This document shows positions 18,001 through 24,000 of a stretch of 53,774 bases of DNA, one piece after another. The notes below the pieces were generated by a model, which saw nothing but the letters and a program-made list of their open reading frames with translations, had not been told where the DNA came from and searched no databases. Position 1 is the first letter of the stretch. Every line of letters starts with the position of its first letter. The DNA comes from an uncultured Planctomycetales bacterium (GTDB taxonomy: Bacteria > Omnitrophota > Gorgyraeia > Gygaellales > Profunditerraquicolaceae), in assembly GCA_964354585.1 (NCBI GenBank), contig CAYHAI010000102.1, forward strand, positions 1-53,774, written 5' to 3'. The translations under genes and the position numbers were made by a program.

Positions 18001-21000
18001 CTTTGTCCGCTACGTTGCCGAACAAAACTATTTTGCCGCTAAAGCCTTCCGGCGCAGTAGCTCCCAAGGCAATGGGGGTCTGCGCAATGGGAGTTTTTAC
18101 CTTGAGCTCGGCACTTTCCTCAACCAAAGGTTTTCTAAAATCTCCGATAATCGGACGGAATTGGATAATGTAAAGCTTGCCGTCTACGAAACCCCATTCC
18201 ACATCCAGCGGCACGCCGACTTTAGCTTCTAAGGCATTGACCACACGGTTTAATTCCTGCGCTTGTTCTTGGCTGAGCGGGCTGAAGATATCCTGAATTT
18301 TGGGATACGTCTGGATGACTGCCTGCATCTCTTCCAGATTTTTTTCCACGCAGTAGCGCTGGCCTTTTAAGGTAAATTCATAAGGCATTTCTAAATAGGA
18401 AGGCGCATATTCAAATAGATGTTCACCTTTCTTAAATAAGAAGTGGCAGGTATTGGCAAATATTCCTCTGACTGCTGTCCGGGCATCGCCGATTACTGCC
18501 TCTATGGCGGTGTATCCATATAAATTGGACTTGGCCACTCCGGAAGCGTCAAAACGCAGGAATGGCTGCACTAGAACAGCAAAGCCTTCTTCGGCGCTTA
18601 AAAGAGGTGAGAAGCCTGCAATTTTTTCCACACCCCAGATTTTCTTGAGCGCATCCATGAATATCTCTCTTATTCCTATGCTAGCAAAGCGTTTATCCGG
18701 CTTCTGGGGCGAGATAAAGATACCCGCTAAGCTGCGCTCATACGAATCTTCTCTTCGGCCGCTGGAACGGACAATAATTTCTCCTTCCAACCCCTTGGTG
18801 CGCTCAGCTATTTCCTCCTCTAATTCTTTAGGAAATACGCATTGCGCGATGAAATAGTCTAATTCCGCCTTGGCCTCTTCGCTAATCTTGCCGGATTTTT
18901 CCATCTCGCGACGCACCAACGCATTACCCTGCTCTACTAATTTCTGATTAGCTTGCAAAAATCTCGCCCATATTTCTGGAATGGCGAAATATATAGTCGC
19001 TATGGTATTAAACCTGAGCTTGTCTTTTAACTGCTCAGCTATCTTCAGCCAAGCTCCCTTGCCGCCCAAGGCCTTTGCTCCTTCTTCAAAGTTCTCTCTT
19101 ACCTTAACGTGCTCGGCTTGAATTTCCTCTAACAATTTCTGAAGATGGAGCAACCTTTCTTCCTCTGGTATTGCCTCTAACACACCGGGATGGTGCTCAT
19201 TTAAATACGCCAGCAGCCCTGGCGCAGAATGGCCTAACTCGGGATTTACGCTGAGAATTTTATGAATTACCCAGCGTTGCTGATGTAACCCCATCCCGCC
19301 GCTGGGGTGACCAAAACCCGAACCGTCTCCCTTCGCTGATTTCTGTTCTGTTGGAACAAGTTTTGCCTTAAATCCAATTTCCTGTAGAATACTACTGATT
19401 AAGTTACACAAGATATGCATAATAACGGGGACAAGCAAAGAATTTGTCCTCCAATAAGCATAACCATAAATAAACCCAATAATCCACGCCGTAATTATTT
19501 GTCCCCTATGACGGATAGAAAATATAGTGGCGCTGATAATCAGAGAAATCAAAACACCTAATGGTAATCCAAAAATTGTGTTATTTAACTCTAACGTGTT
19601 AACAAAGAATGATAATGCTAAGTTCAACAATATCAATCTAAAAATTATCTCTTCAATCACGGGTAAGGAAGTAATACTTATTACCGTACTTAATCTGTCC
19701 TTAAAAGCAGAATGTCGTACGGCCTTGAGGTTAAGAACGTTTACAATTAAAATTTTCATTACCATATAGAATATTGAAATCGGAAAGACTATTACAAAGT
19801 AAAGTTTTAGTCCTTTTAGCAAATAAGTTAAAGGTGCATCGCGATTGAAATAAATAATCGGAATAATAAGAATAAGAAAGATTAAAATGGCAGGAATAAT
19901 GCTATGAATGGAGTCATCAGAAGCACGTTGTTCGGACTTCAAATTCTTCACGCACCTCTTGGCAAACTTCTCATGCTCCTCATCCGTCTGGTCAGGATAG
20001 GCCAGGGCATGGCCTTCGTAGAAGAAGTCTGCGATGGTGGGGTTAGCAGTAAGGAAGACGATGATGTTGGGCTGGGAACGCAGGTTTAAGGCGCGGACTG
20101 TGGTGTGGCGTTTGGCTTGAAATACCCTGATTTCTTTGGCCAAGGTAGATTTTTCAGGTTCAGGAGGGCCGGTTTTAACAATAGAGTTTTCTAAGATTTT
20201 AAGTAGGTCAGGAAAACCTTGGTTATCCCTTAATACCTGAATGGCTGCTTGCCTTAGCTGGTCATATCTATTAGTCTTGGGCAAAGCTTTGATTTCCTCT
20301 ATATTTTTATCCCTGATAGTCCTTAATTCTTCCGTTGCTTTTGGATCGGTCAGGGGCGGCTCGCAGCGGGCGGGGTCGGGAAAATTACCTTGACGCAGGA
20401 AAGAAAATAAGGTATATATATAAACAAAGGGAGGTAAACTCAAAATGGAAGCGAATAATAAATTATTAAAAAGAATTTTTGTTGACCCTAAAGTGCAACA
20501 CGGAAAACCCTGTATCGCTGGGAGCCGCACTCCTGTCCACGTGGTACTAGAAGCCATTGCTATGGGTATGGATTTTGCAGGAGTGAAAGCTGAATATCCG
20601 CCCATAAGTGACGAAGATATCCGAGCCTGTATTCTCTTCGCAGCATTACTTGCCCAAGAAGAAGAAGTGCCGCTGGTAACCTCATAATTACGATGAAACT
20701 GCTTCTGGATGCAGACATTCCGCGTTCTTTCCTGAGCAACCTTAAGGCAGAAGGTTTTGATGTCACTGATGTGCGGGATATGCCTGACCAACCCATCCCA
20801 GATGAAGCGATATTTAATCTTGCCTCTAGAGAGCGCAGAATTTTGATTACGCGCGACCTGGACTTCAGCAACATCCTGCATTATCCTCCCTCTAAGTCCT
20901 CGGGAATTATCGTCCTGCGCACCCACCTGCTCTCTAAAGAAGAAATGCTGCAAATCCTTAAAGAGGCGCTTAAACAAGGCGCGCAAACCCTGGATAAAAC

Positions 21001-24000
21001 CCTGGTCATCGCCAGTAAAAACCGCCTGCGTTTTCATAAATAAAATAACATTCCCCACCAAGCCCATTACACCTAAACTCATTATACCTACGAGGTGGAG
21101 GAAGGTTAATCCATTGCTACTTGCATCTGGCCTGCATCCTCCGACAAAGAACGAAATTAAGGCTAAGGGCAAGAGGATGGAGAGAATTTTTGGACCGTGA
21201 GAATTATGTCTGTCCCCATTTCTTGCACCCGAGGCCTCTTGTGGCGAATATCCTTTCTCCTCCAAAAGTCTTGCTAATCCCCGCAATAACTCTTCTACTT
21301 CTTGTATCGTACAACTCGAATCATCAGCTATTGATTGAATAACTAATTCTCTATCCGGCCGTGTTTGCGCCCCTGCTAAATTATATAAATTATCCATAAC
21401 ACTTGTAGACAATTGAGGATTATCCCGCCTATTGCTTGATAAATATGCCCATATCAATTCCTCTAATTCTTTAAGGGCTACGTTTTCAAAAGGAGACTCT
21501 TCCCGCAAGCGTCCGATAAAAGTCTGAGCGGTTACTTTACCTGTAAGGGTTTCGCCAAAAACAGTTTCTCTTATCTCAGGAAATACAAACCGCCTTATAG
21601 AATTCTTTAATAAACTTATAGGAATTGCTTTTCCTTGCCTGCTAAACATAATCCAAGCTATGGCAAACGGCGAAAGCAGACATTCTCCATCAGAATCCTT
21701 AACCGCAAGGAGATCGGCTATTTTCGGCTTAATCTCATCATCGTCAAGCGAAGATTTTATGACAATGGCAATCTGAGAACCGTTGAATAAAGGATTGTCT
21801 GAGGCGTCTTTTTGTTTCAATAGCTCGGCGATTAAGGCGCTGAGTTTATCATCCGGCCGCTTGGAAGCAATTATCGTGGCAATCTGAGAACCATTGAATA
21901 AAGGATTGTCTGAGGCGTCTTTAATATTTTGAAGATAATTTAATAACCCTAATTTTTGACTGTATGGCCGTCTTGAGTTCAATATCCAAGACATATACCG
22001 AGGCAAAAGATTAGGAAATTTAGAAATAACCTTATATCTTATTACGCATTCCGTTGCAATCTTTTCACTCTCCTCATCACTTTTGCCACAGAGAGAAAAG
22101 ATTTCGTGAAGGACCGAAGGGATAAATTCGGGGTGGGTTTCATGGGAAATGTCTTGAGCAATGAGTATCCATTCATTATCTTGTTCATCTTCGTAGTAGG
22201 TAGCGAAGATATCCTCAAATGCGTTTTCCTTGGGGACTTCCCTGATGCGGTGGCCTTGGTAGATTTGCTCTAATTTATTTGCCACGGCTCTTGCTTCGGC
22301 ATCAGGTGATTTTTTAAGCGAAGAGATATATTGCTCTATTGCGGGAGAGATGATTTCTTTCCTTCCTGATAAATTGCCTAAACTTTTGAGGTAAGAGATT
22401 ATTTTCCCTCTCTCGGGCGTCTTGTGCCCTCTCCGGGTGCGGGCAGGGTCGGCGTGAATAGACAGAACTGCTGCGGCAAGAGCCAGAGCCCGACCCCTCG
22501 GCTGCATCCCTCGGTTTCCAAAATTTCTGTTGACAGGAATACCTAAAATTGTTAACATAAATCTGCGCCCCAGTATCTCAACTGGAGAGAGAACTCGACT
22601 GCTAATCGAGTGGTTCCGGGTTCGATCCCCGGCTGGGGCGTCGTTTAGAGAGAAGCGGAACCGGGGCAGTCGCTTCTCTCTTTTTCTATCAGTAATTTTT
22701 CCCTTGACAAATGTAGGTTTATCTTTTATACTTTTAGTAGCAGTCGAGAGTATCCTGTTGAGGTACTGGGAAAGCGAGGTTATTGATATTACCTCGCTTT
22801 TTCTTTTGCCTGCCCAGTAAGAAATACCAACAATAGCCCCTACACTTACTACCGCAAACACCAGCCATAGCGGCGCAAACCACGCCCCCACCCCGGCCAA
22901 AACCCCTAAAGTCGCAAGCTCTGCTACGCCGCGGGTTCTTCTTTCCCCCATCCCGCCGCTGGGGTGGATGTCAAAGGAAGGATTTTCTTTTATTATATGG
23001 AATGTATTCTGCTCTAAAGCCTCAAGGTAATATTCCTCATCATTAAGGTAACCGCCTATCTTCTTCAGTTGGAAGATTCCTGTTATATATTCATCCAGGC
23101 TAACTTTGCTATAGCCAAACATGCCGGCAAGGACCGCCTTTATATTGATATTACCTGCATATTCTATTGTGTAGTCTATTAAGGCCTGTTTGATCTGTTC
23201 TTTTAAAGGCTGTATAGATGAATAGCTGTCATTTATCTCAATGTTATCTATGATAAGGTATGGTTTATTATGTTTATCCTTAGCTAAAAATAGCCAAGCC
23301 AAGGCCATTGTTTTAGCGGTGTCCTCATCGATTACTTCTGCCACCTGAATACCCTGGTCGATAAGATGGTCAATCATCGCATCAAAGTGGGAACCTGAAT
23401 TGGTAGCCAGGCAGCATCCGGTAAAGTCGCCCATAAACAAGTCATGCGCCGGGTCTCTTTTCCATACCTTGATAGTGAAATATTGTTTTCTCTTAGCCAG
23501 CTCTTTTAGGAGAGCAGGATTATTGATAAGTTTTTTGAGGTCGTCTATGGAAGCGCTTAGATGAAGGGCGGCCTCCTGGACAGACGACTCGGTTACATTC
23601 CTGGCAATATAGCCTATAGTCTTTTCTAAGCTGGATATATTGGCGGCATCTTCAAATACTGCCACTACCCTATTTCTATTATTCAAACTGTGTCCGCTGG
23701 TAGAAATAAACTCTAAGCCTAACTTGGTTTCTTTGTCGGATGAGACCTTGAGGTTTATTTTTTTCAAGGCATTGGTTAAGCCCTGCTTTTTGGCTTCTGG
23801 CAAAAGCTCATATAGCTTTGCAATATAACCAGCCATCCTGAATATCTCATCCTCGGGGTCTATTTGAAGATTGCGCTCTGAAAAAGAAAAAAGGTTTTCT
23901 TCCGGGTAGGACAGCCATTTATCTACATTTACACCGCAGGCTTCTATAGCTTTTCTTATCTTGCTGTTATGTTCTGCTAAATTTCTACCCTCTTCATCTT

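Follow-up and report, generated by a model that had tools for sequence, protein, structure and literature searches.

The 53,774-nucleotide stretch of contig CAYHAI010000102.1 – assembled from an uncultured Planctomycetales bacterium of GTDB lineage Omnitrophota, and referred to here in its full length as the window – is spanned on its minus strand by a single giant reading frame, within which complete toxin-antitoxin (TA) operons lie antisense on the plus strand. Two of these operons pair a DUF433 antitoxin gene with a DUF5615 PIN-like toxin gene, and in each of them the gene that shares triplet register with the giant frame (DUF5615 at 20693-21043 and DUF433 at 37040-37306) lacks the codons TTA, CTA and TCA, which would read as stops on the opposite strand. 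Here, we argue that a dual-strand constraint very probably explains this codon pattern, the plus-strand genes having been recoded to keep the giant frame open. As judged from sequence comparisons, the constraint is asymmetric, acting on protein sequence on the plus strand and only on the absence of stops on the minus strand.

The codons of the giant frame lie at plus coordinates 3k+2..3k+4, and over 1..53773 (17,924 codons) it contains 0 stops. It is truncated by both window ends and so has at least 17,924 codons, well above the >10,000 codons that characterize giant genes of the Omnitrophota type, and the longest open run in all other frames of the window is 519 nt. Its translation has a normal, protein-like composition and includes ~20 mutually unrelated Pfam families, among them HATPase_c, HTH_31, several methyltransferases, ABC1 kinase, HEAT, Peptidase_M48, PPDK_N, an Rce1-like protease, Sigma70_r4, Response_reg and Peptidase_M50. 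In a hydropathy scan there are 65 peaks, of which some overlap, as would be expected from several dozen transmembrane (TM) segments; the frame thus joins many enzymatic and regulatory domains to numerous TM helices, as multi-enzyme giant genes do. In a self-trained codon scan it is the best codon-usage frame almost everywhere outside the antisense operons and the related RNA unit, which we refer to collectively as cassettes. Giant open reading frames (ORFs) are known mostly from metagenome assemblies, and the frame might be an assembly or annotation artefact, or be open for a non-translational reason, with the plus strand simply carrying an island of small genes. We regard the chance of this as close to negligible: 17,924 stop-free codons at 42% GC are impossible by chance or misassembly, the Pfam families and the codon usage point to the giant frame, no Pfam family is matched by plus-strand ORFs lying outside cassettes, the same architecture recurs in at least 11 other contigs, and an independent assembly (Logan contig ERR4334731) is identical to window 20147-21181 over 1 kb, with 0 mismatches.

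The sequence-only reading in which the missing codons were first noticed took them as direct codon-level evidence of dual-strand constraint. Its observations hold: both genes start at 2 mod 3 and are therefore in register with the giant frame, TTA, CTA and TCA occur in 0 of 116 codons of the DUF5615 gene and 0 of 88 codons of the DUF433 gene, and TTA is among the commonest Leu codons, being the top Leu codon (33% of Leu) in the giant frame outside the cassettes. However, the absence of these codons from co-registered genes follows from the minus frame being open, and alone it restates that fact and is not an independent observation. The constraint itself is supported by independent tests: a register control, a shift of Leu codons to CTG, the comparison with free-living homologues, and the asymmetry of selection all favour recoding of the sense genes. 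The background codon usage was taken from the 16,536 giant-frame codons that lie outside cassettes, where CTA makes up 7.7% of Leu, TCA 15.8% of Ser, and the three codons together 55.6 per 1000. From this background and their amino-acid sequences, 8.7 TTA/CTA/TCA codons are expected in DUF5615 and 3.8 in DUF433, with P(0) = 1.9e-5 and 9.5e-3, respectively; across the five Pfam-supported register-0 genes ~26 are expected and 0 seen, with a joint P(0) of 8e-15. General avoidance of the three codons, which the sequence-only reading had named as the observation that would overturn it, is not seen in the 16.5 k codons of this DNA, all from the giant gene.

Register is defined here as the plus-strand gene start minus the giant codon low coordinate, modulo 3. 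A minus-strand stop corresponds in register 0 to a sense codon TTA, CTA or TCA, all of which can be replaced synonymously; in register 1 to a codon junction Y-TA or T-CA (the hyphen marking the codon boundary); and in register 2 to TT-A, CT-A or TC-A, which often cannot be avoided without changing an amino acid. Every two-gene operon in the window consists of one register-0 gene and one register-1 gene, so that five Pfam-supported genes and two small antitoxin-like ORFs are in register 0, seven genes are in register 1, and register 2 is empty. Tabulated in this way – the check that had been proposed – TTA, CTA and TCA are found in 0/543 codons of register-0 genes vs 41/753 codons of their register-1 partners (54 per 1000, as in the background; Fisher p=2e-10). 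The two DUF433/DUF5615 operons have their registers assigned the opposite way round, and the codon pattern is reversed with them: in the first operon the register-1 DUF433 has 5 such codons in 80, and in the second the register-1 DUF5615 has 6 in frame. CTG accounts for 40% of Leu codons in register-0 genes; in register-1 genes and the giant frame its shares are 11% and 12.5%, respectively. Codon junctions show the reciprocal pattern, with a pyrimidine preceding a TAx codon in 0/22 cases in register-1 genes vs 21/28 in register-0 genes (p=3e-8), and T preceding a CAx codon in 0/34 vs 8/31; ~10 register-1 stops are expected in the giant frame across the cassettes and 0 are seen. Depletion of Tyr, His and Gln in register-1 genes, considered as an amino-acid-level adaptation, is a weak trend and is not claimed. 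A rule that register 2 is forbidden was also considered, and is refuted by a GC-rich nested lineage at two related loci (L036 98-750 and L072 4690-5336), in which DUF433 is in register 2 without TT-A, CT-A or TC-A junctions and DUF5615 is in register 1.

Both focal genes could instead resemble, or stem from, GC-richer DNA, their codon bias having nothing to do with the giant frame. The DUF5615 coding sequence (CDS) of the first operon indeed has a GC content of 0.48 vs ~0.42 locally, and composition matters among free-living DUF5615 homologues, of which those with CDS GC of 0.27-0.41 carry 7-16 TTA/CTA/TCA codons per gene in the proposed comparison with genes outside giant frames, and those with CDS GC of 0.45-0.53 carry 0-4, with two having none. 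Free-living homologues in metagenome contigs have 2-11, except for one homologue with 0, present in two near-identical contigs of 0.53-0.56 GC (a figure for the whole contig, not the CDS); altogether, three distinct free-living homologues at five loci, on 0.53-0.56 GC contigs and with CDS GC of ~0.5 where measured, have 0. The DUF433 partners of free-living homologues have 0-7 in-frame codons and 1-5 junction triplets. Every relative of at least 56% identity is antisense and in register 0 inside a contig-spanning minus-strand ORF, and the 11 distinct full-length members of this clade (eight from GTDB genomes and three further ones from metagenomes, with one additional truncated copy) contain 0 TTA/CTA/TCA codons, including one in a contig of GC 0.34, in spite of saturated synonymous divergence. 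That eleven lineages have stayed stop-free while their synonymous sites turned over to saturation requires stops to be selected against continually. High GC may explain a stop-free state at insertion but not its maintenance, nor why the partner DUF433 of the first operon uses the three codons freely and the pattern inverts in the second operon as register inverts, and we consider an origin in codon bias alone highly improbable.

The search profile for DUF5615 was built from the seven closest sequences, because a nine-sequence profile was too divergent for searching. The contig-spanning ORFs around embedded relatives extend over up to 20.3 kb of fetched DNA, and the metagenome-assembled genomes (MAGs) with the nearest cassette relatives are labelled Omnitrophota or Planctomycetia/Planctomycetales; no cassette relative was found in the viral contigs searched. 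The DUF433 partners of embedded relatives follow the same register-dependent avoidance, and further TA genes lie antisense in giant ORFs of other MAGs, among them PIN_3, a second DUF5615, and HicBA in the same registers. In a neighbour-joining tree the embedded register-0 DUF5615 genes form one clade, which has long been resident in giant genes, and the register-1 copies (window 37308, L007 and L036) another.

An alignment of eight clade members indicates which strand is under selection. Read in the sense frame of DUF5615, synonymous sites are saturated (pS 0.77) with pN 0.25, and differences at third codon positions (0.59) exceed those at the others (0.31 and 0.20); for the giant frame of these sequences, pS is 0.38 and pN 0.36, a ratio of ~1. 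Sense dN/dS is ~0.1-0.2, and the antisense, giant-frame peptide has an identity of 0.34 vs 0.31 expected if the sense proteins are kept and synonymous codons redrawn randomly. Rough as these estimates are, they indicate that the TA protein is under purifying selection and that the giant frame over the cassette is only kept open: both strands carry ORFs, and only one of the two proteins is selected. The opposite possibility, true bidirectional coding with a functional and selected giant-frame peptide across the cassettes, draws on the recurrence of cassettes after a TM hairpin and before a module beginning DPAR, and on the hydrophobic, TM-like stretches of some antisense peptides; given a giant-frame pN/pS of ~1, an antisense identity barely above its expectation, and the filling of paralogous slots by unrelated cassettes, it is very improbable. 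Alternatively, the TA genes may be dead relics, swallowed as linker-coding DNA and constrained on a single strand. The giant frame must read through the cassettes in any case, one unit of the window lacks a protein gene, and a DUF5615 copy at L035 6001-6186, shortened to 61 codons beside an intact-looking DUF433, is still stop-free in the giant frame. We nonetheless judge this to be improbable, since the TA ORFs are intact in start, stop, Shine-Dalgarno (SD) sequence and promoter, their Pfam matches are full length, differences between members are concentrated at sense third positions with low dN/dS, the giant-frame peptide is conserved no more than the sense proteins alone predict, and DUF5615 residues D6, D37, F58, L62, P65, P66, G71, I72, L104 and I106 are kept. 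The L035 copy itself resembles a cassette in decay from which stops are still excluded.

Both operons have the layout of type II TA systems, with co-oriented genes, the antitoxin first, and spacings of 5 nt and 1 nt. The gene at 20693-21043 is a full-length match to Pfam DUF5615; the two DUF5615 genes score 83 and 55 bits (cut-off 23.8) and the two DUF433 genes 72.5 and 64.7 bits (cut-off 23.6), all above curated thresholds. An NCBIfam scan of ten cassette proteins returned no matches, and NCBIfam has no model for the DUF433/DUF5615 pair. Columns invariant among embedded and free-living DUF5615 proteins in a nine-sequence alignment include L17 in addition to the ten residues above, and D8, D55, S59 and N60 are invariant only when register-1 copies are left out. 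With the conserved residues of a PIN-like toxin kept and the protein under the estimated purifying selection, the predicted product is a member of this TA family. Pairs of DUF433 and COG4634/PIN_10-type PIN-like proteins are recognised as type II TA systems, for the most part by prediction (PMC5499597; see also PMC3834315 and PMC2701414).

Several points weigh against recoding by the giant frame as the full account. The headline codon absence is logically implied by the open frame, and the codon background comes from the giant gene and its cassettes alone and is not organism-wide. From sequence we infer both that the cassettes are translated as part of the giant frame and that the TA genes are expressed. 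The register rule is not absolute, as DUF433 of the L036/L072 lineage is in register 2. Synonymous sites are saturated, which makes the dN/dS values rough, and Nei-Gojobori estimates are biased for overlapping frames (PMC4316641). Among the cassettes outside the DUF433/DUF5615 pairs, both PIN matches (cassettes A and E, below) fall under the Pfam gathering score. Finally, no empty slot that would prove insertion was found in another genome, and searches of GTDB representative genomes with the TM-hairpin and the DPAR 'X' module gave no confirmed relatives.

The dual-strand constraint most probably arose as follows. Self-contained transcription units – seven type II TA operons and one tRNA/small-RNA unit – would have been inserted antisense into the giant gene, bringing their own sigma-70-like promoters and, for the operons, usually an SD sequence. 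With a stop anywhere in the giant frame, all that lies downstream would be lost, through truncation of the protein or uncoupling of translation from a very long transcript, so that only stop-free inserts would survive and selection would remove every plus-strand triplet that reads as a minus-strand stop. In register-0 genes TTA, CTA and TCA would be replaced by CTG, CTT, TTG, TCT and AGC, and in register-1 genes Y-TA and T-CA junctions would be avoided by using A/G-ending or non-T-ending codons before Tyr, His and Gln. Registers 0 and 1 would be favoured because stops can be removed there without altering the TA proteins, and the antisense orientation because the unit keeps its own promoter and terminator and the host transcript is not terminated. 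The cassettes may first have entered from GC-richer DNA, in which the antisense register-0 frame is open by chance, as in the three free-living homologues with none of the three codons. The ~200-aa peptide read through a cassette would be an unconstrained, tolerated spacer between a TM hairpin and the next module, and the cassettes might be mobile selfish passengers, or might penalise deletions in a repeat-rich giant gene, roles that are not mutually exclusive.

Comparisons among loci bear on how the cassettes have moved. When the DNA of the first operon is aligned with seven other loci, similarity starts at the -35 box and stops right after the toxin stop codon, and the flanking giant-frame sequences are not homologous between loci; from these sharp boundaries and unrelated flanks it follows that the cassette has passed from one giant gene to another. 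In-frame direct repeats of 31-84 nt, 75-89% identical and spaced by a multiple of 3, bracket the DUF433/DUF5615 cassette in six of eight related loci (L013 3379-3445/4294-4360, L035 5551-5634/6346-6429, L010 4885-4966/5803-5884, and also L015, L014 and L002). They often encode a TM helix, and around the window cassettes such repeats are much weaker or absent. Bracketing repeats of this kind are what single-crossover (Campbell-type) integration, or local duplication, would leave, and they are much longer than transposase target-site duplications. Cassette borders in the window have no terminal inverted repeats or attC-like sites and no integrase domain is among its Pfam matches; within the window the inserts therefore differ from integron gene cassettes, which are defined by an attC site and a neighbouring integrase and attI. 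They also differ from MITE- or RPE-type elements, which are short and non-coding and have terminal inverted repeats and a target-site duplication, in lacking such inverted repeats and in encoding operons.

A broader possibility, which we find doubtful and put forward tentatively, is that giant genes of Omnitrophota and Planctomycetota act as landing pads for stop-free antisense cassettes, both TA operons of various families and tRNA/small-RNA units, exchanged at conserved slots, with TA modules stabilising the genes against deletion. Conserved sequences on either side (TM hairpin / cassette / DPAR module) would then recombine, exchanging cassettes in an integron-like manner inside a translated ORF, and the TA modules would be addiction devices guarding a deletion-prone 50-400 kb gene, convergent transcription coupling toxin control to giant-gene expression. 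Paralogous slots of the giant protein are filled by unrelated cassettes, and a slot in L007 that is homologous to the window slots of DUF7718/DUF5647 and HicBA holds DUF433/DUF5615 instead. TM-hairpin paralogues in the window reach 96% DNA identity. Flanking modules at 15337-15411 vs 26101-26175 and at 22103-22402 vs 25061-25360 are 92-96% DNA-identical with unrelated cassettes between them, which suggests recent gene conversion or cassette swapping between slots.

The codon scan together with Pfam searches places seven antisense two-gene TA operons in the window; they are listed below with the tRNA/small-RNA unit and the adjoining modules of the giant protein.

Features of the window, with positions on the forward strand, gene registers relative to the giant frame, and Pfam E-values (SD, Shine-Dalgarno sequence)
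Feature	Position	Strand	Content	Promoter; SD	First gene	Second gene
Giant ORF, internal part	2..53773	-	Multi-domain, multi-TM protein, Omnitrophota/Planctomycetota 'multi-enzyme' type			
Cassette A	13320..13937	+	Antitoxin-like ORF + PIN-domain toxin; paralogue of cassette E	13320-13348	Small antitoxin-like ORF 13376-13540 (register 0)	PIN toxin, ends 13937 (register 1), start uncertain (ORF opens 13467); E 3e-3, weak
Cassette E	14660..15275	+	Antitoxin-like ORF + PIN toxin	14660-14688	Antitoxin-like ORF 14714-14881 (register 0)	PIN toxin, ends 15275 (register 1), E 4e-4
Cassette B	20390..21043	+	DUF433 antitoxin + DUF5615 PIN-like toxin operon	TTGACG-17-TATATA, 20390-20418; GGGAGGT	DUF433 20445-20687 (register 1)	DUF5615 20693-21043 (register 0), E 1.7e-23
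Slot C, RNA cassette	22530..22806	+	tRNA + small-RNA candidate, two promoters; without protein gene	22530-22558 and TTGACA-17-TATACT, 22704-22732	tRNA 22566-22642	
Cassette D	25436..26134	+	DUF5678 + retropepsin-like Asp_protease_2	25436-25464	DUF5678 25485-25730 (register 1)	Retropepsin-like Asp_protease_2 25646-26134 (register 0)
Cassette F	36986..37655	+	DUF433 + DUF5615 operon	TTGACG-17-TATAGT, 36986-37014; AAGGAGG	DUF433 37040-37306 (register 0), E 2.4e-20	DUF5615 37308-37655 (register 1)
Cassette G	39624..40259	+	DUF7718 + DUF5647	39624-39652	DUF7718 39659-39988 (register 0), E 1.3e-35	DUF5647 39981-40259 (register 1), E 3.4e-19
Cassette H	48689..49159	+	HicB + HicA	TTGACT-17-TATATA, at 48689	HicB 48738-48941 (register 1), E 1e-8	HicA 48938-49159 (register 0), E 8e-17
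'X' module of giant protein	19913..20377	-	Starts with DPAR; directly C-terminal to cassette-B-derived peptide			
X-module paralogues	12827-13306, 22040-22450, 24992-25408	-	Each adjoins a different cassette			
TM-helix module	21035..21190	-	Directly N-terminal to cassette B			
Analogous TM hairpins	15338-15490, 22820-22939, 26102-26272, 40262-40495, 49178-49420	-	N-terminal to cassettes E, C, D, G and H			

The promoter motif TTGACN-17-TAnnn[TA] stands at the start of all eight slots, and seven of the eight units have an SD sequence; in cassette G the -10 box ends 6 nt ahead of the ATG without an SD, which suggests a leaderless mRNA. As a regular expression the motif has 13 plus-strand matches vs 1 on the minus strand, and nine of the 13 are at cassette starts. 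Intrinsic terminators between 13 and 27 kb are not in excess (14 vs 14.8 in shuffles), and clear ones occur only in the RNA cassette. The X module, of 140-160 aa and with a DPAR start, is on the C-terminal side of a cassette in four cases. Unit boundaries also have a 26-nt DNA repeat (at 11164, 12211, 13939, 19291, 22948 and 26260; 77-92% identical), three copies of which stand shortly before a cassette or its TM hairpin. The repeat can form a short hairpin, and in the giant frame it reads 'FGHPSGG' and then M, L or I. The two adjacent glycines suggest C39-type processing; alternatively, recombination may take place at the repeat.

Slot C is the unit without a protein gene. ARAGORN assigns its tRNA the anticodon GCU, Rfam scores it as tRNA at 64.9 bits, and the giant ORF reads through it without a stop; a terminator hairpin follows at ~22648-22688. 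The variable loop is 5 nt and no CCA is encoded, and because a GCU anticodon is here combined with a short variable loop this is not a canonical bacterial tRNA-Ser. It has A20, C35, U36 and G73, and by E. coli rules would suit ArgRS. The second promoter is the strongest match in the region (11/12), and ~40 nt beyond it lie a hairpin (GCGAGGT..ACCTCGC, 22774-22806) and a T-run, the end of a ~65-nt small-RNA candidate with no Rfam match. Searches of genome and viral collections for the exact tRNA pattern gave no hit, and a tRNA is lacking from all 14 related loci checked.

Elsewhere in the giant frame, three tandem Xre-type HTH repeats (HTH_31 / HTH_3 / Pou-like matches) at 44030-45319 on the minus strand may be sense-oriented antitoxin-like genes absorbed into the giant ORF. 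The closest giant-frame match, in a MAG contig labelled Planctomycetia, is a HATPase-containing block of 341 aa at 67% identity (L007 2400-3395 vs window 41936-42949) with different neighbours, and giant genes look like mosaics of shuffled modules common to several taxa. Out-of-frame minus-strand ORFs at 30513-30854, 15306-15635, 40653-40904, 29668-29931 and 20560-20874 have no Pfam match and are taken to be shadow ORFs, as are the other long plus-strand ORFs outside the cassettes, which likewise have no Pfam match.

If translated as proposed, ~10% of this giant-'protein' stretch would be spacer peptide encoded opposite selfish operons. This matters for the question of whether the giants are single functional polypeptides or processed polyproteins. 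The window would also offer a clean natural case in which the reading frame of one strand determines which synonymous codons are used on the other. TA systems of this kind, and the tRNA, will be missed systematically by gene callers that do not allow nesting. Should the cassettes prove to stabilise giant genes, this would help to explain the persistence of 50-400 kb ORFs.

Multi-enzyme giant genes have been described in the Omnitrophota, with proteomic support for one (10.1101/2023.11.21.568195; 10.64898/2026.06.07.730766); spectra of the giant protein from the Velamenicoccus archaeovorus LiM culture are published. The window resembles these 'Archaeovorin' or multi-enzyme class genes, and those of Planctomycetota, in its ORF of tens of kb, unrelated Pfam domains (methyltransferase, HATPase_c, response regulator, peptidases and HEAT) and many TM helices, and all close cassette relatives lie in MAGs of these two phyla. 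Genes nested on the opposite strand are absent from the published description: the texts of two giant-gene papers have no occurrence of 'antisense', 'opposite strand', 'nested', 'DUF433' or 'HicA', and literature searches for TA genes nested or antisense within giant genes returned nothing relevant. The DUF433/DUF5615 operons match known pairs of DUF433 (COG2442) with PIN-like COG4634/DUF5615/PIN_10 proteins, such as Synechocystis vapBC10 and M. tuberculosis VapB45, in gene order, sizes, Pfam families and possession of their own promoter (PMC5499597), but differ in that the whole operon lies antisense inside another ORF that dictates its synonymous codons.

Sedentary chromosomal integrons, such as the Vibrio superintegron, are similar in that promoter-bearing TA cassettes are densely packed in a recombination-prone array, here at about one per 7 kb. 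The classical work on stabilisation by TA cassettes is reportedly that of Szekeres et al. in 2007. TA cassettes in chromosomal integrons have been proposed to penalise array loss (PMC13108822), and the likeness in cassette density leads to the hypothesis that the window cassettes might do the same. Unlike chromosomal integrons, the window has no attC-like or terminal inverted repeats and no integrase, and the array is itself an ORF that would be translated. Rickettsia palindromic elements, and inteins by analogy, likewise are foreign DNA that persists in a host ORF, keeps the frame open and is translated with the host protein (PMC10969869); those elements are ~150 bp, palindromic and without genes, whereas the window inserts are opposite-strand operons of 0.6-0.7 kb without inverted repeats, and inteins are spliced out, whereas nothing is spliced out of the window giant protein.

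Few antisense overlapping genes are known in bacteria, and most are disputed because their second ORF lacks homologues. The two P. aeruginosa antisense overlapping pairs of 957 and 1536 nt resemble the window in having ORFs on both strands of the same DNA (PMC8850804); they are evolutionarily novel ORFs overprinted on an older gene, whereas the nested genes of the window belong to old, widespread families that entered a host ORF, and the host frame is without protein-level constraint over them. The parts of the present system are thus known singly, and what appears to be new is their combination: complete, mobile and conserved operons, antisense in a giant ORF and purged of host-frame stops. 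Because the nested genes are intact and conserved members of well-known families, and are found in at least 11 further contigs from two phyla, they make an unusually clean case among antisense overlaps.

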